34,429 bases of DNA, taken from Pyrinomonadaceae bacterium. Its GTDB lineage: Bacteria > Acidobacteriota > Blastocatellia > Pyrinomonadales > Pyrinomonadaceae. The stretch spans positions 1 through 34,429 of the forward strand of contig DATHJK010000261.1 in assembly GCA_035316225.1 (NCBI GenBank), given 5' to 3'. The position numbers and the translations under genes are program-made. Positions 5,408 through 33,475 of the stretch are shown in pieces. Position 1 is the stretch's first letter. Each line of letters begins with the position of its first letter. Below the pieces are notes generated by a model. The model did no database searches, was not told the origin of the DNA, and saw only the letters and a list, made by a program, of their open reading frames with translations.

Positions 5408-5409
5408 GT

Positions 5410-5483
5410 GATGAATGATGAGTGCAGAATGATGAATAAGAAGAATTTGTCTTTAATTCATCATTCTGCACTCATCATTCATC
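5410..5483. repeat. GTGATGA-family hairpin (perfect 28-bp stem, 18-nt loop)
   Basis: GATGAATGATGAGTGCAGAATGATGAAT (5410-5437) is the exact reverse complement of 5456-5483. The arm reads as 7-nt units GTGATGA/ATGATGA/GTGCAGA/ATGATGA. Confidence 0.9.
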
Positions 5484-7109: not shown

Positions 7110-7579
7110 AGCAGAGCCTTTACCTGGAAACTTCTGTGGTCGGCGCTTATCTTGATAACGGCGAGCCGTTCCGGCGCGACCTGACGATTCGGTGGTGGGA
7201 GCACGAGTTGCCGGAGTATCGCGCTGTGGTCTCGCCGCTGGTTGCGCGCGAGCTCGAGCGCGTAGTGGAGCCGCACCGCACAGGCTATCTGAAACTTGTG
7301 GAGCCGCTCGAACAGGTCGAGTTGACGGACGAGGCGGCCATCCTCGCGGAAGGCTACATCTCGCGCGGCATCTTTCATCGCAAGTACATTGCCGACGCAG
7401 TGCATGTTGCTCTTGCTTCGTGTCATAAAATTGATTACTTGGTAACATGGAACTTCGGCCACCTGGCGAATGTGCGCCGTCAGGCTCGCATACGCCTATT
7501 CAACACGGCGGCAGGCTTCTTCGTCCCGATGATAGTGACCCCGGAGTTCCTGGTTTCGGAAGCAACAGAAAGGCAGTGA
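7106..7579 (+). CDS. PIN-domain-like protein (VapC-like nuclease fold, atypical acidic residues)
   Basis: 157 aa. YLETSVV, VARELERV, IADAVHVALA and VTWNFGHL occupy the positions of the four PIN acidic residues (E, E, D, N). The start overlaps the upstream stop (ATGA). Confidence 0.5.
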   Translation: MKQSLYLETSVVGAYLDNGEPFRRDLTIRWWEHELPEYRAVVSPLVARELERVVEPHRTGYLKLVEPLEQVELTDEAAILAEGYISRGIFHRKYIADAVHVALASCHKIDYLVTWNFGHLANVRRQARIRLFNTAAGFFVPMIVTPEFLVSEATERQ

Positions 7580-7648
7580 TGAATGCAAAGTGCAGAGTGA
7601 TGAACTGAAAAGCATTTAATTCATCACTCATCATTCTGCATTCATCAC
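7576..7648. repeat. GTGATGA-family hairpin, paralogue of 5410-5483 (imperfect stem)
   Basis: Left arm GTGATGAATGCAAAGTGCAGAGTGATGAA (7576-7604) and right arm 7620-7648. The outer 12 bp and inner 10 bp pair, with an internal mismatch block. The left arm matches about 25/30 nt of the arm at 5408-5437. It overlaps the PIN gene stop codon. Confidence 0.85.
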
Positions 7649-7654
7649 TTCATT

Positions 7655-7940: not shown

Positions 7941-7974
7941 CTAACATCCGACATCATACATCTGACATCTGAAC
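7941..7974. repeat. Single-arm heptamer tract (ACATCYG type)
   Basis: AACATCC GACATCA TACATCT GACATCT GAAC, followed by CTTTT and the ATG at 7979. It is the complement of the tract at 15455-15500. Confidence 0.8.
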
Positions 7975-7978
7975 TTTT

Positions 7979-8767
7979 ATGGACGTGACGTTTGAGACAA
8001 TCGGGCTTGAAGTGCCGAGCGAGAAAGCTTTCAACTACCTCGCGGAGCGAGCGGGCAATCAAGGCGAGGCGACGCAACTGATGCGGCGAGGCGCTGTGCT
8101 TCACGGTCGCTGCTGGAAGTTGGGCGAAGGTCTTGAAGTCTGGACGGTGCTTTACGAATCGGGCACTGGCGAGATTTTCTACGCCGACTGTCGCCCAGGC
8201 TTTAGAGCGCGCTACACGCAGCGCATAAGCCCCTGGGCTTTGACTGAATACGATGAAGAGGGCGAGGCAGTCATTCACGGCTACTGCGATGGCACGGACA
8301 CGGAAGTTCTGTTCGAGCTTCAAAATCTTACGGAGGTGGGCGCGCAGGGTTTCCGCGCGCAGGAGCTTCACGTAGGCTTGTGCGGCCTAGCCTATAGAGC
8401 GCGCGTCTGCTCGCGCCCGGTGAAAGCGCGCTGGCAGCCTCTGGAGCAGACTGCGCCGTCTCGTGCGGCGCACGAAAACGATTGGGGACTGACCGGGCGC
8501 GTTATCGCCTTCAAGCCGCTTCGCAACCCGCTTTCTGGAAGCAACCTTTACTGGGTTTACGTTGATCTGGATCGTCTCAAGCTCGAAATCCTGGTGAACG
8601 GGCGCTCGCTGCGCGGCGGTAACCTTCAGATCGGCGCAACCATTTCCGCAGAAGTCTGGTTGCAAGGCCACGTGCTGGACGAGCGAGCGCTTCGTTCTCG
8701 CTTCGAGGGCGTTGACCCTGCTTATGCGACCGTCGCTTTCTGGCAAGGGCTGAGAAGGAGAAATTAA
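7979..8767 (+). CDS. Hypothetical cytoplasmic protein (262 aa), no family recognised
   Basis: Long ORF with GC-rich third positions like its neighbours. No signal peptide or motif that I can name. Confidence 0.6.
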   Translation: MDVTFETIGLEVPSEKAFNYLAERAGNQGEATQLMRRGAVLHGRCWKLGEGLEVWTVLYESGTGEIFYADCRPGFRARYTQRISPWALTEYDEEGEAVIHGYCDGTDTEVLFELQNLTEVGAQGFRAQELHVGLCGLAYRARVCSRPVKARWQPLEQTAPSRAAHENDWGLTGRVIAFKPLRNPLSGSNLYWVYVDLDRLKLEILVNGRSLRGGNLQIGATISAEVWLQGHVLDERALRSRFEGVDPAYATVAFWQGLRRRN

Positions 8768-8768
8768 T

Positions 8769-8856
8769 CAGGAGTCAGAATTCAGAAGCCATTAGCCAGA
8801 AGAAAAGTTTGCATCCGCATATCTTCTGACTCTTGACTCCTGACTTCTGACTCCTG
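8769..8856. repeat. CAGGAGT/CAGAAGT heptamer hairpin (5 units per arm), followed by a T-run
   Basis: Left arm CAGGAGT CAGAATT CAGAAGC CATTAGC CAGAAGA (8769-8803). The reverse complement of the right arm (8822-8856) reads CAGGAGT CAGAAGT CAGGAGT CAAGAGT CAGAAGA, about 29/35 complementary. CTTTTTT then the ATG at 8864 follow. Confidence 0.85.
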
Positions 8857-8863
8857 CTTTTTT

Positions 8864-9490
8864 ATGAAACGCCTGCTCGTCATCCTCATCCTTCTTGTGC
8901 TCGTGGGCGCGGGCGCGTACTTTTTCAATCAATACTGGATTCACCGCTTCGATCCGTTGATAGCTCGTCAGGCGGGCATCTATCGCATTGACCCTGATCT
9001 GGTGTGGTGCGTCGTTTACGAGGAGACGTATTTTCGCCCGTGGAAGGTTGGAAACGACGGCGAGATTGGATTGATGCAGATAACGCCTGCCGTGGGGCGC
9101 ATGTGGGCTACAGAGACGGGCATGCGTGATTTCGAGCGGCAGATGGCACAAGACCCTAAGAAATTTTTAAGTGACCCAGAGCGCAACATACAGATAGGTT
9201 GCTGGTATCTTGAGAAATTCTACGAGCAGTTCCGCGACATGCCGGGCGCAGAGGCTCGCATGGTCGCAGGCTACAACGCAGGCGCTAGCCGCGCGGAGGA
9301 GTGGAATCGCTCTTCCGATAATCGCCAGCTTTCCGCAGACGAATTCATAACGCGCATTGACATACCTTCCACGCGCGCTTACGTCTCTTCGATCCTCAAC
9401 CGATACAGAAAACTGAAAGCAGAGAGAGCAAGAGAGCAGCAGCAGCTACAGGCGAATTCTAATGCAAACTCGGCGGGGGGCGGGCATTGA
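8864..9490 (+). CDS. Lytic transglycosylase, SLT domain (GH23), membrane-anchored
   Basis: N-terminal TM (LLVILILLVLVGAGAYFF). Catalytic-Glu region VVYEETYFRP, plus GLMQI and AGYNAG motifs. Confidence 0.8.
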   Translation: MKRLLVILILLVLVGAGAYFFNQYWIHRFDPLIARQAGIYRIDPDLVWCVVYEETYFRPWKVGNDGEIGLMQITPAVGRMWATETGMRDFERQMAQDPKKFLSDPERNIQIGCWYLEKFYEQFRDMPGAEARMVAGYNAGASRAEEWNRSSDNRQLSADEFITRIDIPSTRAYVSSILNRYRKLKAERAREQQQLQANSNANSAGGGH

Positions 9491-13948: not shown

Positions 13949-14035
13949 AGTGATGAGTGATGAGTGATAAGTGATAAGAAAGAACTAAAGCTTTTTGTCT
14001 TATCACTTATCACTTATCACTCATCACTTATCACT
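13949..14035. repeat. GTGATGA/GTGATAA heptamer hairpin (~30-bp stem, 18-nt loop)
   Basis: Left arm AGTGATGAGTGATGAGTGATAAGTGATAAGA (13949-13979), right arm 13998-14035. The inner 17 bp are perfect. The loop AAGAACTAAAGCTTTTTG resembles the loop of 5410-5483. Confidence 0.9.
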
Positions 14036-14047
14036 ATATCATTCATG

Positions 14048-15454: not shown

Positions 15455-15500
15455 CAGATGCCGGATGTCAGATGTTAGATGCTGGACATCAAGCATCTAC
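15455..15500. repeat. Single-arm heptamer tract (CAGATGY type) with a small internal hairpin
   Basis: CAGATGC CGGATGT CAGATGT TAGATGC, then TGGACATCAAGCATCTAC. TAGATGC (15476-15482) pairs with GCATCTA (15493-15499). On the minus strand it ends ...CATCTGCTTTTT directly before the cysS ATG. Confidence 0.8.
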
Positions 15501-15566: not shown

Positions 15567-15663
15567 TCACGCAAAGACGCAAAGGCGCTAAGAAGAACGC
15601 AAAGGAATTGAATAACATTTTCTTCTTGCGTCTTCTTCTTTGCGCCTTTGCATCTTTGCGTGA
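15567..15663. repeat. CGCAAAG-type hairpin (~40-nt imperfect arms)
   Basis: Left arm TCACGCAAAGACGCAAAGGCGCTAAGAAGAACGCAAAGGAA. The right arm's reverse complement is TCACGCAAAGATGCAAAGGCGCAAAGAAGAAGACGCAAGAAGAA. Begins 12 nt after the thiL stop. Confidence 0.85.
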
Positions 15664-15675
15664 AACCTATTTTTT

Positions 15676-16854
15676 CTAACCGAAATGCTCGAACCCGCCT
15701 CTCTCCAAGTCCCAAACGTGCGAGCCTTCAGATATGAGAATGCGTCCGGCTTCATCTGTAATGTCTCCTATGTATGTTACAGGTACGCCGTCAATTCTTC
15801 TGGGTAGGCGGCGAAGGTTGGGCGGGCGCACGGTGAAAAGAAGCTCGAAGTCCTCGCCGCCGTGCAGCGCCAGCATCAGTGGATCAAGCGCGCGCCGCCC
15901 GCAGGCAATCGCTACGTTGCGGTTGATTGGAATTCGCGCGGCCTCAATTTTCGCGCCGACCCGGCTCTCTTCGCACAGGTGCGCAAGGTCGGACGACAGA
16001 CCGTCGCTCAGATCAATCATGGCTGTCGCCAGCCTGTCTTCTCCCAGAAAGATGCCCCAGCCTGTGCGCGGCAAAGGTTCTCTCTGTCTGCGAACTAAAT
16101 TTTCTATCATGCGCGCCTCGCGCTCGCTTCCTCGTTTCGATTTCTCCGCTCCGCGCTCAAGCAGTCGCAATCCTGCGGCAGCGCCGCCAAGCGTTCCCGT
16201 CACGAAGATATGATCGCCTGCGCTTGCGCCGGAACGAAGCACAGCGCCGCCACTCATCGTTTCTCCCATCAAGATTGAATCAATAACTATTCGCTCAGGC
16301 GTGCGCGACACGTCGCCGCCCACTAACGTAACGTCATGTTCGTCGGCTAGCGCGAAGAAGCCCTGATAAAAATCGTCAACGAACGATGAGCGCCAGACTT
16401 TTGGGGGGACTCCGAGCGAAACGAGCGCCCATACGGGTCTCGCTCCCATCGCTGCTATGTCCGAGAGCGAAACTGCAAGCGCCTTGTGCCCTAGAAGCGA
16501 TGCGGGAGTGTACGAGAGCCTGAAATCTATATCTTCAACGAGTAAATCCGCCGTGATAACGGTGTCGCGCCCGGAAGTCTGTTTGATAACAGCCGCATCA
16601 TCGCCAATGCCGGAAATGAGGGATGAGGGATGAGGGATGAGGGATGAATGAATGAAGCTTTGCTCTGAACTATGTTTAAGGGCGCGTTGTCGGATTTTTT
16701 GTATAAGGTCAAACTCGCTGCGAGATGAGTTATCAGAAGACGCAGAAGGACTGATGAAAGTTTCGCTGTTAGAAGATGAAGCGCGTTTATGTCTTTCCAC
16801 TTGTCTGCGCGACTCGGCGTCTGCGCGTCTCAACTCCTCGTCTTCATCCCTCAT
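15676..16854 (-). CDS. thiL: Thiamine-monophosphate kinase, with a repeat-derived in-frame insertion near the N-terminus
   Basis: SEFDLIQKI...GIGDDAAVI...ADLLVEDIDF...GGD match the ThiL/AIR-synthase-like pattern. The start is uncertain: the ATG at 16854 lies inside a repeat, and in-frame TTG and GTG alternatives lie 7 and 18 codons downstream. Confidence 0.8.
   Translation of the reverse strand: MRDEDEELRRADAESRRQVERHKRASSSNSETFISPSASSDNSSRSEFDLIQKIRQRALKHSSEQSFIHSSLIPHPSSLISGIGDDAAVIKQTSGRDTVITADLLVEDIDFRLSYTPASLLGHKALAVSLSDIAAMGARPVWALVSLGVPPKVWRSSFVDDFYQGFFALADEHDVTLVGGDVSRTPERIVIDSILMGETMSGGAVLRSGASAGDHIFVTGTLGGAAAGLRLLERGAEKSKRGSEREARMIENLVRRQREPLPRTGWGIFLGEDRLATAMIDLSDGLSSDLAHLCEESRVGAKIEAARIPINRNVAIACGRRALDPLMLALHGGEDFELLFTVRPPNLRRLPRRIDGVPVTYIGDITDEAGRILISEGSHVWDLERGGFEHFG
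16616..16656. repeat. (GAGGGAT)x4 tract inside the thiL coding sequence
   Basis: Plus strand ATGAGGGATGAGGGATGAGGGATGAGGGATGAATGAATGAA. On the minus strand it is read in frame as FIHSSLIPHPSSLIS. Confidence 0.9.
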
Positions 16855-16872
16855 CCCTCATCCCTCATCCCT
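16843..16872. repeat. (TCATCCC)x4 tract, inverted copy of 16616-16656
   Basis: Four exact TCATCCC units at 16844-16871. They fill the gap between the aminotransferase stop (16873-16875) and the annotated thiL ATG. Confidence 0.9.
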
Positions 16873-18063
16873 TCAAAGATTTCTTCTTAGGGAATCCAGT
16901 CCTGCTTCTATGGCTTCGATTGAGGTTGAGAAGGAGAAGCGCAGGTGGCCTTCGCCGTGTTCGCCGAAGACTATGCCGGGGACGGTTGCGACCTGAGCGC
17001 GTTCCAGAAGAATTTCTGCGGCAGCACGGCTGTCCGTGCTAACAGAGGTCACGTCCGGGAAAGCGTAAAAAGCTCCTGCGGGGCTTTCGCACTTCAAGCC
17101 CAATTCGTTTAGACCTGATAGCAGCAGGTCGCGCCTTCGTAAATATTCCGAACGTAGTTTCTCAAAAAAATCGCCCGGCGTTGAGAGCGCTGCGAGAGCC
17201 GCCCATTGTCCGGGCGTCGAAACTCCGTTCGTGGAATAGAGCGTCATCTTCTTCAGCCCCGTCATCCAGGGTTCGGGCGCGACGGCGTAGCCCATGCGCC
17301 AGCCCGTCATCGAATAGCTCTTCGATAACGTGTAGCAGGTGATGGTGCGCTCGAACATACCTTCGATCGAAGCAATGGAAACATGCTCGCCGTCGAATAT
17401 GATGTCCTCGTAAGCTTCGTCCGCTATCACGATCAGATCGCGGCTTCGGGCGAATTGAGCGACTGCTTCAGCTTCTTTGCCTGTAAAGACCACGCCCGTC
17501 GGATTCTGCGGCGTATTGTAATAGATTGCGCGAGTTCGCTCGGTCACATACCGCGAGAGCGTTTCAACGAAGCCGTCCCGGCGCGCTGTTTCAGTTGGAA
17601 CTAAAACGAGCGTTGCGCGGCAATGAGCCACAAGGTCTTTAATCGGAGTCCAGTAGGGCGAGAAGACCAGCACTTCGTCTTCCGGGTTGACCACAGATTG
17701 AAATGCAGCGAACAGGCACTGCATGCCGCCGCTCATCACAATCACGTCCTGCTCGCTCGCAGGAATACTGTTACGCTCGCGCACTTTCTCAGCGATGCTT
17801 GAGCGCAACTCCGGTATCCCGGACGACGGCGCATAGCGCGTCCTGTCTTCTGCGAGGGCGCGCATCATTGCTTCTTTGATATGCTCGGGCGTGTTCGTGA
17901 ACGGCTCGCCGCCTTCAAATTGATAGACCTGCTTGCCACGGGAGCGAATCTCCATGACACGGTTGCGAATCGTTACAATATCGGAGAAGCCTACGCGGTC
18001 GAGGCGGGCTGCCAGACGAAAAGCGGTTTCAGACGTGGACACTGTTTTAGGATGAACCTCCAA
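16873..18063 (-). CDS. Class-I PLP aminotransferase (aspartate aminotransferase-like)
   Basis: GGEPF, NPTG, and YTLSKSYSMTGWRMGY (PLP lysine) motifs. TTG start in the ORF track; the exact start is uncertain. Confidence 0.8.
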   Translation of the reverse strand: MEVHPKTVSTSETAFRLAARLDRVGFSDIVTIRNRVMEIRSRGKQVYQFEGGEPFTNTPEHIKEAMMRALAEDRTRYAPSSGIPELRSSIAEKVRERNSIPASEQDVIVMSGGMQCLFAAFQSVVNPEDEVLVFSPYWTPIKDLVAHCRATLVLVPTETARRDGFVETLSRYVTERTRAIYYNTPQNPTGVVFTGKEAEAVAQFARSRDLIVIADEAYEDIIFDGEHVSIASIEGMFERTITCYTLSKSYSMTGWRMGYAVAPEPWMTGLKKMTLYSTNGVSTPGQWAALAALSTPGDFFEKLRSEYLRRRDLLLSGLNELGLKCESPAGAFYAFPDVTSVSTDSRAAAEILLERAQVATVPGIVFGEHGEGHLRFSFSTSIEAIEAGLDSLRRNL

Positions 18064-18131
18064 AAATGCAGGAACGAAAGAGAAACGAAATTATAACTTG
18101 ATGCTTCCGATGCAGTCCAATACGCAAGACT

Positions 18132-21829: not shown

Positions 21830-21906
21830 CGGGGCGTGGCGCAGCCTGGTAGCGCGTTCGCTTGGGGTGCGAAAGGTCGGCGGTTCAAATCCGCCCGTCC
21901 CGACCA
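21830..21906 (+). tRNA. tRNA-Pro (anticodon GGG), CCA encoded
   Basis: Folded by hand. Acceptor CGGGGCG/CGTCCCG (one G-T), D stem GCGC/GCGC, anticodon stem TTCGC/GCGAA with loop TTGGGGT (GGG, G37). Variable loop AGGTC, T arm GGCGG-TTCAAAT-CCGCC, discriminator A, then CCA. Confidence 0.9.
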
Positions 21907-32260: not shown

Positions 32261-33208
32261 TTATCTTTGTCTTCTTGTTCTTACAGGCGTAGCGCGTATG
32301 CGCGCGATTTCGTATTGCGTGTTATCTATTCGCTCCTGCGCATCGGGGTGGTCGCTGAAGATGGAGCCTAATATGCTCGGCTCGCTGTGGGCTATCTGCT
32401 GCACTTTCCGAAGCATCGTGACCATGCCTTCAGGGTCGAATCCTGCTTTCGCTGCCCCATGCACGCCCAGGTAATCCGCCTCGCGCTCCTCATCGCGGCT
32501 GTGCGAAGCCAGCAACCCGCCCGCCACGGCCTGCGCCGCCGCTGTGCCCAGTTCACCAGCCGTCTGCCCGGCTATACCTGTTATCGAGCCGAAGACGTTC
32601 GCAAGGTCGCCCAGCGCCTGCGACTGTTGCAGCCTCTTCAAGCTGTGGCGCGCTACGACGTGTCCAATTTCGTGCGAGAGCACTGAAGCAAGCTCGTCAT
32701 CATTCGCAATCTCAACCAGAGCGTCTGTGACATAAACATGGCCGCCCGGCGTGGAGAAGGCATTCAGCTCGCGCGATTGAATGACGTGAAATTTGTATAG
32801 AAGACCGGGGCGCAAACTGGAGCGCGCAACACGCTGGCCTATGCTGTTGACGCGCTCCTGCCCTACGGTCGTGAACTGAACATGCTTGCCGACTTCCAGG
32901 TGGAATTGATTCCCAAGCCGAACCTCGTCGCGCTCGCTCATCAGCCCGGCGTTAGAATAATGCGCGCCGCGAAACTGCTCATAAGGGTCATACTGTAGCG
33001 AGCCTGTGGCGGTTGAGACGGCAGATGATACAACCGTAGAGCCTAAAGAGAAGATGTCGGAGATGATAGAGCGCTGCGAGTCCGTGTTATTGCTCGGCTG
33101 CTGCTGCTGGCGCTGTTGCGCGGGCGCGCCTGTAAAGGTTGTTAAAGTGATTGCCAGCGTGATAACTGCTATCAACAGCTTGCTATGTCTTGAATTAAGG
33201 GGGTTCAT
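32261..33208 (-). CDS. M48-family zinc metallopeptidase, secreted
   Basis: HEIGHVVARH (HExxH) and a signal peptide (LLIAVITLAITLTTFTGAPA). Confidence 0.85.
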   Translation of the reverse strand: MNPLNSRHSKLLIAVITLAITLTTFTGAPAQQRQQQQPSNNTDSQRSIISDIFSLGSTVVSSAVSTATGSLQYDPYEQFRGAHYSNAGLMSERDEVRLGNQFHLEVGKHVQFTTVGQERVNSIGQRVARSSLRPGLLYKFHVIQSRELNAFSTPGGHVYVTDALVEIANDDELASVLSHEIGHVVARHSLKRLQQSQALGDLANVFGSITGIAGQTAGELGTAAAQAVAGGLLASHSRDEEREADYLGVHGAAKAGFDPEGMVTMLRKVQQIAHSEPSILGSIFSDHPDAQERIDNTQYEIARIRATPVRTRRQR

Positions 33209-33340: not shown

Positions 33341-33475
33341 GTCAGTACCGCCTGAGAGAAGGGATGAGGGCGAAGGGATGAATAAGAATTCAGTGAACAG
33401 GTCAATATGCAATTCATTCAACCCATTTCATCCCTCATCCCTCATCCCTCATCCCTTCTTTCAGGCGGTACTGAC
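33341..33475. repeat. Composite hairpin: GTCAGTACCGCCTGA termini enclosing GGGATGA heptamer arms
   Basis: Left arm GTCAGTACCGCCTGAGAGAAGGGATGAGGGCGAAGGGATGAAT. The right arm's reverse complement is GTCAGTACCGCCTGAAAGAAGGGATGAGGGATGAGGGATGAGGGATGAAAT. Stem about 42 bp, loop about 41 nt. Confidence 0.9.

Follow-up and report, generated by a model that had tools for sequence, protein, structure and literature searches.

Organization of the thiL locus

The DNA analysed here, referred to below as the window, is a stretch of 34,429 nucleotides from a soil acidobacterium of the family Pyrinomonadaceae (GenBank assembly GCA_035316225.1, contig DATHJK010000261.1). On its minus strand, a class I/II aminotransferase gene is followed by thiL, which encodes thiamine-monophosphate kinase, and two tracts of a tandem 7-nt repeat lie in inverted orientation around the 5' end of thiL. 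The features, in the order in which they would be transcribed, are as follows:

18090-18119, minus strand: promoter-like site upstream of the aminotransferase gene (a consensus match only)
16873-18063, minus strand: aminotransferase gene, with its TGA stop at 16875-16873
16843-16872, minus strand: upstream tract, (GGGATGA)x4 plus flanking bases, the 5' arm in the mRNA; the in-frame thiL start ATG is 16854-16852
16649-16842, minus strand: 194 nt between the arms, coding the poorly conserved N-terminal extension (residues 5-46) and the conserved EFDLI helix (EFDLI at 16716-16702)
16616-16648, minus strand: internal tract, (TCATCCC)x4.6, the 3' arm in the mRNA, translated in frame as (H)SSLIPHPSSLI
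15676-16854, minus strand: thiL, 392 aa with AIRS and AIRS_C domains; GIGDD at 16611-16597

Read on the plus strand, the internal tract is (GAGGGAT)x4 at 16618-16645 and the upstream tract is (TCATCCC)x4 at 16844-16871. Tandem Repeats Finder (TRF) reports period 7 for both, with 4.6 copies at 16616-16647 and 4.1 copies at 16844-16872, each with 100% matches, and a scan for exact runs agrees. The longest perfect inverted arms, 16619-16648 and 16843-16872, are 30 nt long, 100% complementary and 194 nt apart. A third identical (TCATCCC)x4 lies at 33428-33456. The 14-mer GAGGGATGAGGGAT, allowing up to two mismatches, occurs 11 times in the window, whereas shuffled sequences give a mean of 0.15 and none of 100 shuffles reaches 11.

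The upstream tract directly follows the stop codon of the aminotransferase gene. It contains four ATGs covering all three frames, TGA in all three frames, and an SD-like GAGGG one unit upstream of each ATG; the thiL ATG is the third of the four. The internal tract has no stop in any frame and is read as ...SFIHSSLIPHPSSLISGIGDDAA. EFDLI is at residues 47-51 and GIGDD at 82-86 of the protein, so the spacer is 30 aa. Pyrinomonadaceae orthologues without a tract have spacers of 14-19 aa (mode 18), and solved ThiL structures have GIGDD at about residue 22-32 rather than 82. The first-pass annotation had proposed that the internal tract is an in-frame insertion and that the thiL start lies within the inverted copy, and both proposals are supported. 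The inserted 10-12 residues fall between helix 1 and strand 1 of the enzyme, where AlphaFold places them, with moderate to low confidence, in a coil running into strand 1.

Because the unit length is not a multiple of three and the tract lies near the 5' end of an ORF, gain or loss of one unit could in principle switch thiL off and on; this appears to be the classical architecture of slippage switches. We consider a contingency locus of this kind very unlikely. All of the tract-bearing thiL loci whose frame was checked are in frame; four units is short for high-rate slippage; and thiL is a housekeeping gene, as are murD, leuS and dnaE, in which similar tracts occur (see below), rather than one of the surface or restriction genes that such switches usually control. 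The spacers of 24, 31 and 38 aa in murD do show that only steps of three units survive. Public reads gave no variant information: only two soil-metagenome runs hold the region, as contigs at about 4x that break at both tracts, and about 140 contigs per run match the tract itself.

Conservation and co-variation of the tracts

The pair is not unique to this genome. In about 20 other Pyrinomonadaceae species the same two tracts sit at the same places, directly after the aminotransferase gene, whose synteny with thiL is conserved in all orthologous loci examined. The recurrence of this architecture in about 20 independent assemblies, together with the fact that both sides of the in-gene tracts belong to one gene, rules out an assembly artefact. 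Of the 120 best ThiL homologues, 83 have a 7-residue-periodic peptide before GIGDD, including SSLIPHPSSL in 27 and SSLITHHSSL in 16. In all tract-bearing loci the frame carrying the EFDFI box is open back to the upstream tract (loops of 77-252 nt). It opens one codon before an ATG there (MRDE, MSDE or MKDE), and there is no other start codon before EFDFI. The upstream stop lies 6-40 nt before the ATG, and no promoter-like site was found between the two genes.

Importantly, the units of the two tracts change together, as GGGATGA/TCATCCC, GTGATGA/TCATCAC or AGGATGA/TCATCCT. To measure this, 17 loci with both tracts were aligned without gaps on the ATG and on GIGDD, anchors that are independent of pairing. 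In this alignment 86.8% of cells pair, against 36.6-56.3% when the partner is slid by 1-3 columns; 10 of 28 pairs show changes on both sides (25 cells), and 0 of 500 shuffles reach the covariation score. On a ThiL tree, the GTGATGA/TCATCAC type appears in at least three separate places among GGGATGA/TCATCCC lineages. Complementarity also extends into locus-specific flanks that are not part of the repeat, for example GAAGAA/TTCTTC in L034, GAGTC/GACTC in L047 and TAAGGG/CCCTTA in L042 (L numbers denote the Pyrinomonadaceae loci compared with the window).

The correspondence is not universal. L008, L019 and L058 keep a perfect internal tract with no upstream partner, L017, L036 and L052 keep an upstream tract with no internal one, and L002 and L056 have both tracts but unmatched units. 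Tract maintenance therefore does not require the stem. In addition, orthologues without tracts show no start-region pairing with the codons preceding GIGDD (-12.9 against -13.9 kcal/mol for control windows, with the start region ranking best in 2 of 25 loci), so that any control through such pairing is not ancestral to thiL.

The internal tract is constrained at the nucleotide level. Four-fold-degenerate sites of thiL are only 32-40% identical between the window and L004, L034, L042 and L053, yet the 28-29-nt tract is identical in the window, L001, L004, L034 and L042, and L053 differs in one unit. This bears on the possibility that the peptide itself is the selected feature, for example as a linker needed by ThiL, with the DNA periodicity only a relic of its origin. 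Although the insertion has a constant position and a similar length in most of the family, the peptide varies at most of its seven positions between lineages (P/T, H/Q/R, I/S/V, L/F) while the 7-nt periodicity stays perfect, and we regard this explanation as highly doubtful.

Another alternative is that the tracts are binding arrays for a protein that recognises heptamer repeats, on DNA (with looping between the two arrays) or on RNA, and that the arms co-vary because both must match its specificity. Heptamer direct repeats are binding sites for SARP-type regulators in Streptomyces (PMC5930380), heptamer repeats close to start codons have been proposed as protein-binding sites in Beggiatoaceae and Nostoc (PMC4679880; bioRxiv 10.1101/2022.06.06.494920), and other tracts in the window sit immediately upstream of start codons. 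However, several unrelated units coexist in one genome (the window itself holds GGGATGA, GTGATGA-type, ACATCTG and CTGACTC tracts), units turn over between sister species, and the complementarity reaches into the locus-specific flanks, making this explanation unlikely. The coexistence of units also means that the arms match each other and not a genome-wide consensus unit, and excludes the possibility that one dominant unit per genome drives the co-variation.

Predicted folding of the transcript

In the predicted fold of 16590-16900 (minus strand), the stem formed by the two arms is present in both the MFE and the centroid structure (-105.6 kcal/mol, z = -5.8). The arm duplex alone is -62.7 kcal/mol. 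In the closest relative, L001, there is a second, nested heptamer helix (-185 kcal/mol, z = -12). A search with Rfam at gathering thresholds finds only a tRNA at 21830-21903, and no TPP riboswitch.

The first-pass annotation had also suggested a G-quadruplex at the thiL translation start. The window sequence does fit the G3-N4-G3-N4-G3-N4-G3 pattern, and the isolated 5' arm is predicted to gain about 10 kcal/mol with a G-quadruplex (-12.7 against -2.6). As the conserved property of the site, however, the G-quadruplex is not supported: orthologues carry GTGATGA or AGGATGA units without G-runs at this position, and with G-quadruplexes allowed the full transcript still folds into the arm duplex. 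Regulation of initiation by a G-quadruplex is thus very improbable.

Mismatches between the arms may help to distinguish selection on RNA from processes acting on DNA. Among transition-type mismatches, 12 are G.U and 3 are A.C in the sense RNA, although this excess rests on only about 13 events. The same comparison in intergenic heptamer hairpins, using the direction of flanking ORFs, was uninformative, as 72 of 83 hairpins could not be assigned a direction of transcription.

Heptamer tracts at other sites

The thiL tracts belong to a wider class of four-copy heptamer repeats. In 462 kb comprising the window and 80 Pyrinomonadaceae loci there are 88 tracts of period 7, against 3 of period 6 and 5 of period 8; this sample is centred on thiL, so thiL's own tracts contribute. 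The exact (GGGATGA)4 occurs in at least 120 metagenome stretches with GC from 0.37 to 0.70. The loops (7-113 nt) and flanks of 23 paired (GGGATGA)n/(TCATCCC)n elements are unrelated, which rejects a classical MITE with a conserved interior or flanks. In other bacteria, (TCATCCC)n lies in uninterrupted ORFs whose products look like LeuRS, DnaE, MurD, MurB and a DegT-type aminotransferase, all but MurD having been identified by eye from the translation. The murD insertion is shared by many orthologues, and its unit turns over at a fixed site and a fixed four copies. The in-gene tracts of murD, leuS, dnaE and murB have no partner within 1.5 kb.

These observations suggest the main rival to a role in thiL expression, namely that both tracts are slippage-prone heptamer microsatellites that colonised tolerant places, a gene junction and a surface loop, and that their complementarity is kept at the DNA level without benefit to thiL, by quasi-palindrome template switching or by non-crossover gene conversion between the inverted repeats. 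Templated correction of imperfect inverted repeats appears to be an established mutational mechanism (Ripley; Lovett), and the partner-less thiL tracts of L008 and L019 remain perfect. On the other hand, template switching is documented mainly for short-loop quasi-palindromes, whereas the loops here are 77-252 nt, and a DNA-level process predicts no strand bias, in contrast to the excess of G.U over A.C. Nor does it explain why perfect repeats persist in essential genes, where off-frame slippage would be costly, or why the 5' arm always holds the start codon in the same register. On balance we consider this explanation unlikely, though less so than the other alternatives.

More speculatively, four-copy heptamer cassettes might be an actively maintained class of genomic element that keeps place and copy number while the unit sequence turns over in concert, even inside essential genes of unrelated phyla. 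The units are TCATCCC, TCATCAC and TCAGCAC in thiL, and CTCATCC, GTCAGCC and GACGCCA at one site in murD. Such a class would imply a dedicated, unrecognised mechanism that homogenises or writes repeats, and the thiL pair would be a case in which such cassettes were recruited as a self-renewing long-range RNA switch providing stop codons, SD and start codon in every frame. We consider this unlikely, although it is not excluded.

A possible long-range stem at the thiL start

Our preferred, though tentative, interpretation is that in the aminotransferase-thiL transcript the two tracts pair into a 30-bp stem that buries the thiL SD and AUG. Pairing is supported by the co-variation, but the stem and its effect on translation are predictions. 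In this model, thiL would be initiated only while the 5' arm is single-stranded, that is, in the interval before the 3' arm is transcribed, or when ribosomes finishing the aminotransferase gene or already translating thiL hold the stem open. A 30-bp stem is more than a terminating ribosome can open (by our estimate it would melt roughly a dozen pairs), so simple termination-reinitiation is not enough and a kinetic window has to be assumed. Once closed, the mRNA would be silent for thiL and a likely RNase III substrate, and the outcome would be low ThiL output tied to translation of the upstream gene. Slippage-type homogenisation within each tract would keep the units alike, with the 5' tract free to change copy number without changing the thiL frame and the coding tract confined to in-frame states, while complementarity between the arms would be kept by selection on pairing.

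There are consequences for the annotation of these genomes: start codons can lie inside repeats, extra protein segments such as SSLIPHPSSL are repeat-encoded rather than functional motifs, and assemblies break at these tracts.

Comparison with known systems

Simple-sequence contingency loci of host-adapted pathogens likewise have an out-of-frame repeat unit inside the 5' part of an ORF, but thiL is a housekeeping gene and the copy number is low and constant across species. REP/BIME palindromes are high-copy intergenic hairpins, and several hairpins between genes are present in this window; REPs have a species-specific, non-periodic consensus and are tied to RAYT transposases, whereas the stems here are periodic and many units coexist.

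Rickettsia palindromic elements (Ogata et al. 2000) are similar in that a repeated element is found in frame inside conserved, essential genes and is tolerated as an extra surface segment. Those elements, however, appear to be 100-150 bp long with a conserved sequence and an internal palindrome, whereas the element here is a 28-nt tandem array whose unit changes between species.

Occlusion of a translation start by a distant segment probably occurs in RNA phage MS2, where the replicase start is paired to coat-gene sequence, and translational coupling is probably associated with AUGA/UGAUG stop-start overlaps. In thiL the SD and AUG are likewise predicted to pair with a distant coding segment, a stop codon of the upstream gene is adjacent, and ATGA motifs are present, but the partner lies inside the regulated gene itself rather than in the upstream gene, and both arms are tandem repeats.

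The closest known systems are the tandem heptanucleotide repeats of bacteria, including the LSSR of Mrazek et al. 2007 (as summarised in PMC4679880), cyanobacterial STRR and Nostoc heptamer repeats (bioRxiv 10.1101/2022.06.06.494920), the TAACTGA repeats of Beggiatoaceae (PMC4679880) and the elements of four tandem heptanucleotides in Geobacter metallireducens (PMC2700814). Such repeats have been noted for decades without an accepted function, although translational regulation is suspected. As here, the unit is 7 nt, there are typically about four copies, and there are many loci per genome, often next to start or stop codons and sometimes inside genes. The units at thiL (GGGATGA, GTGATGA, AGGATGA and others) are not those of the described families (CCCCAGT, TAACTGA, GGGACCG, TTTTGAA and others); a full-text search for the tract and its peptide found no paper, nor did searches for heptamer repeats in Acidobacteria or Pyrinomonadaceae. 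The thiL tracts further differ in forming an inverted pair around a gene start, in that the pair is orthologously conserved and co-varies across a family, and in that one arm supplies the start codon while the other is translated in a conserved enzyme.

Anatomy of the tracts

Direct reading of the sequence, tandem repeat detection with TRF and a search for inverted repeats together define two heptamer tracts at the 5' end of thiL, and the features discussed below are as follows:

16618-16645, + strand: (GAGGGAT)x4, the tract internal to thiL
16844-16871, + strand: (TCATCCC)x4, the upstream tract, containing the thiL ATG
16619-16648 and 16843-16872: the longest perfect inverted arms, 30 nt, 100% complementary and 194 nt apart
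15676-16854, minus strand: ORF of thiL, thiamine-monophosphate kinase
16873-18063: upstream class I/II aminotransferase gene
16646-16657, + strand: tetranucleotide run (TGAA)x3 directly flanking the internal tract (sense TTCATTCATTCA, translated FIH)

Both tracts are scored by TRF as period 7 with 100% matches, and a 14-mer of two units matches 11 times in the window, against 0.15 expected from shuffles. The thiL assignment rests on AIRS and AIRS_C domains and on best PDB matches to ThiL. The ORF reads the internal tract as SSLIPHPSSL, between EFDLI (residues 47-51) and GIGDD (residues 82-86), and its ATG (16854) is the third of four ATGs in the other tract, which begins one base after the TGA of the aminotransferase gene.

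Tracts in orthologous loci

Of the 120 best ThiL homologues (58-78% identity apart from the window's own protein), 83 have a peptide with 7-residue periodicity just before GIGDD. SSLIPHPSSL occurs 27 times and SSLITHHSSL 16 times, and SSFILHPSS, SSLVTRHSSL and others also occur; these peptides are the translations of (TCATCCC)n, (TCATCAC)n, (TCATCCT)n and (TCGTCAC)n. We then fetched 80 orthologous loci from different species (designated here by L and a number) and read the DNA, in which four states exist.

Table. States of the thiL tracts in orthologous loci
No tract: L006, L024, L033, L037 and L039, for example; protein starts MNEFDFI; spacer 14-19 aa, mode 18
Internal tract only: L008 and L019, for example; protein starts MNEFDFI; spacer 26; L008 has a 34-nt perfect (CTCATCA) tract and L019 a 30-nt perfect (CTCAGCA) tract
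Upstream tract only: L017, L036 and L052, for example
Both tracts: about 20 loci, including the window

The first-pass annotation had proposed that the internal tract is an in-frame insertion, and this is therefore correct; the insertion amounts to about 12 aa relative to tract-less relatives. Solved ThiL structures have GIGDD at residue 22-32.

In every locus with the upstream tract, the aminotransferase gene (C-terminus ...IEAGLDSLRRNL*) ends 6-40 nt before an ATG that lies in the tract. The frame that carries EFDFI stays open back to the tract, through loops of 77-252 nt, and opens exactly one codon before that ATG because the tract itself supplies an in-frame TGA. In most loci there is no other ATG, GTG or TTG before EFDFI. 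The ATG used is always the one that leaves one more unit downstream, so the protein starts MRDE, MSDE or MKDE. The segment between the tract and EFDFI is poorly conserved in sequence and length, and in locus L201 it is absent, with (GGGATGA)4 running straight into MRDEFEFI. The 5' tract varies from about 2.5 to 5 units between species, which does not change the thiL frame, and the coding tract is nearly always about 4.3 units.

Co-variation of the two arms

Where both tracts exist, the units match: GGGATGA with TCATCCC, GTGATGA with TCATCAC, and AGGATGA with TCATCCT. To avoid fitting the alignment to the structure, we anchored the 5' segment on the ATG and the 3' segment on GIGDD, and the 17 sequences aligned without gaps. 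On the pairing read from the window, 86.8% of 476 cells form standard pairs, against 36.6-56.3% when the partner is slid by 1-3 columns. Changes on both sides are seen in 10 of 28 pairs (25 cells), and no shuffle of 500 reaches the observed covariation score. The set includes the two loci that do not match, L002 and L056.

On a neighbour-joining tree of the ThiL core, the GTG/CAC type appears in at least three separate places among GGG/CCC lineages, although the tree is from one short protein and its deep nodes are unreliable. Complementarity also runs into flanks outside the repeat that differ from locus to locus. The closest relatives, L001 (2405-2770) and L202 (2100-2430), carry a second heptamer pair, (GACGCGG)n/(CCGCGTC)n, nested inside the thiL hairpin, with both arms translated (GRGDAETRGRG and ASPRPRVSAS). 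It gives about 64 bp of predicted long-range helix, with a folding energy of -185 kcal/mol and z = -12. The same ASPRxRV peptide occurs in several other ThiL homologues (P0014, P0017, P0040, P0076 and P0097 in our set).

Level of constraint

Four-fold-degenerate sites in the rest of thiL are 32-40% identical between the window and L004, L034, L042 and L053, which is close to saturation. The 28-29-nt internal tract is nevertheless identical in the window, L001, L004, L034 and L042, and L053 differs in one unit. The peptide cannot account for this; it varies at most of its positions between lineages, while the 7-nt periodicity stays perfect.

Among transition-type mismatches between the arms, 12 are G.U and 3 are A.C in the sense RNA, or roughly 10 against 3 independent events. 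This is modest evidence that pairing matters in the mRNA rather than in DNA. The mRNA segment is predicted to fold with the 30-bp stem in both the optimum and the centroid (z = -5.8), and no Rfam family matches.

A G-quadruplex in the G-rich arm, also proposed in the first-pass annotation, is not supported as the conserved property. The window's 5' arm fits the G4 consensus and in isolation is predicted to form one (-12.7 against -2.6 kcal/mol), but with G4 allowed, the full transcript still folds into the arm duplex (-62.7 kcal/mol). The orthologues that keep the whole architecture with GTGATGA or AGGATGA units have no G-runs. A transient G4 in this species cannot be excluded, but it is not what is conserved.

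A wider class of heptamer tracts

Period-7 tracts are far more frequent in these loci than tracts of period 6 or 8 (88 against 3 and 5), and 48 of 73 have an inverted partner within 400 nt. Paired copies always read purine-rich arm, then loop, then pyrimidine-rich arm; the loops, of 7-113 nt, are unrelated, as are the flanks, and the purine arm often starts within a few bases of a stop codon. In two soil-metagenome runs compared with window 16300-17200, about 140 contigs per run match the tract at 90% or more, and some join the two arms with only 16-19 nt between them. The short-loop form of this hairpin is therefore very abundant in that community. The window itself has several more hairpins of this general kind, as well as tracts directly before start codons:

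33428-33456 (partner 33360-33392): a third perfect (TCATCCC)x4 with a degenerate purine-rich partner about 40 nt upstream; outer complementary flanks CAGTACCGCCTGA / TCAGGCGGTACTG surround the pair, which sits in a divergent intergenic region (ORFs 32261-33208 minus and 33582 plus)
13949-13975 and 13999-14041: a hairpin whose arms are (AGTGATR)n / (CTYATCA)n heptamer tracts with a 23-nt loop, 7 nt 3' of the cysS stop
5409-5483 and 7575-7650: two related intergenic hairpins (GTGATGAATG..GTGCAGA..TGATGAA and complement) between co-directional genes, each starting right after a stop codon and ending 6-19 nt before the next ATG
7944-7972 (+) and 15455-15481 (-): the same unit (ACATCTG), about 4 copies, in sense orientation directly before two start codons, each followed by a T-rich run and then ATG
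8765-8860: a hairpin of (GAGTCAG)-type and (CTGACTC)x4.4 arms, followed by CTTTTTT and the ATG at 8864, which looks like a terminator placed directly against the next start codon
15564-15597 and 15633-15666: 34-nt inverted arms, 91% complementary, built from an 8-nt period (ACGCAAAG), between the thiL stop and cysS

The last of these shows that repeat-built stems in this genome are not limited to period 7. In the case of cysS, the mechanical ORF start (15496) lies upstream of the ACATCTG tract, but the conserved CysS N-terminus (MLRFFNTLT) begins at ATG 15448, so the real start is probably there.

Solo (TCATCCC)n tracts lie in frame in ORFs whose products look like LeuRS, DnaE, MurD, MurB and a DegT-type aminotransferase, although all but MurD were identified by eye from the translation. 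None has a partner within 1.5 kb. Apart from MurD, the contigs concerned (L085, L180, L163, L162 and L145) range from 37% to 68% GC, so several phyla are involved; in L145, the tract joins an HldE-like and a KdsB-like reading frame into one ORF.

For murD, we checked the homologues. Of 120, 83 have a 31-aa spacer between ELFAQALK and PKVLAITGSNGK, with many different 7-periodic peptides, and four have a 24-aa spacer, a difference of 7 aa or three units. In two MurD homologues (P0138 and P0142), a 25-aa segment (QPGALHRTGRSPARTRAGAPIETPD) interrupts the tract-encoded IPHPSS...LPP peptide, as if a further element had inserted into the tract. At the DNA level, in murD loci of a high-GC lineage (L137, L189, L203, L204 and L205), the one site holds (CTCATCC)4, (GTCAGCC)4, (GACGCCA)4 or a single unit; a different tract, (GTGAGGA)n, lies upstream of murD in L189 and L204. 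Place and copy number are therefore kept while the unit turns over in concert, without any partner, although we cannot explain what homogenises these tracts. In-frame steps of three units, the only survivors of slippage in a coding region, would account for the 24/31/38-aa series and for 'exactly four' in genes.

Interpretation

Our tentative inference is that the arms pair in the mRNA and that the stem hides the SD and AUG, and thiL would therefore be translated only in a window set by transcription and by ribosomes on the upstream gene or on thiL itself. A closed stem would be silent and probably cleaved. The main alternative is that the tracts are functionless microsatellites whose complementarity is kept by DNA-level templated correction or by conversion between inverted repeats, and the partner-less perfect tracts and the murD case do show that tract maintenance itself needs no stem. 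The co-variation, the complementary flanks outside the repeat and the G.U bias are what favour a selected RNA stem for the thiL pair.

Comparison with known repeats

None of the reports on heptamer repeats that we found concerns Acidobacteria, these units, inverted co-varying pairs or orthologous conservation inside an enzyme. Heptanucleotide tandem repeats are described as the commonest long simple repeats in many bacteria (Mrazek 2007, as summarised in PMC4679880). They are also described as TAACTGA repeats before start codons in Beggiatoaceae (PMC4679880) and as heptamer repeats near start codons in Nostoc (bioRxiv 10.1101/2022.06.06.494920), and in Geobacter metallireducens, elements of four tandem heptanucleotides occur at 49 intergenic and intragenic sites (PMC2700814). 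The in-frame tolerance seen here is perhaps reminiscent of the Rickettsia palindromic elements, and start-site occlusion by a distant coding segment, if it occurs, may be likened to that in MS2.
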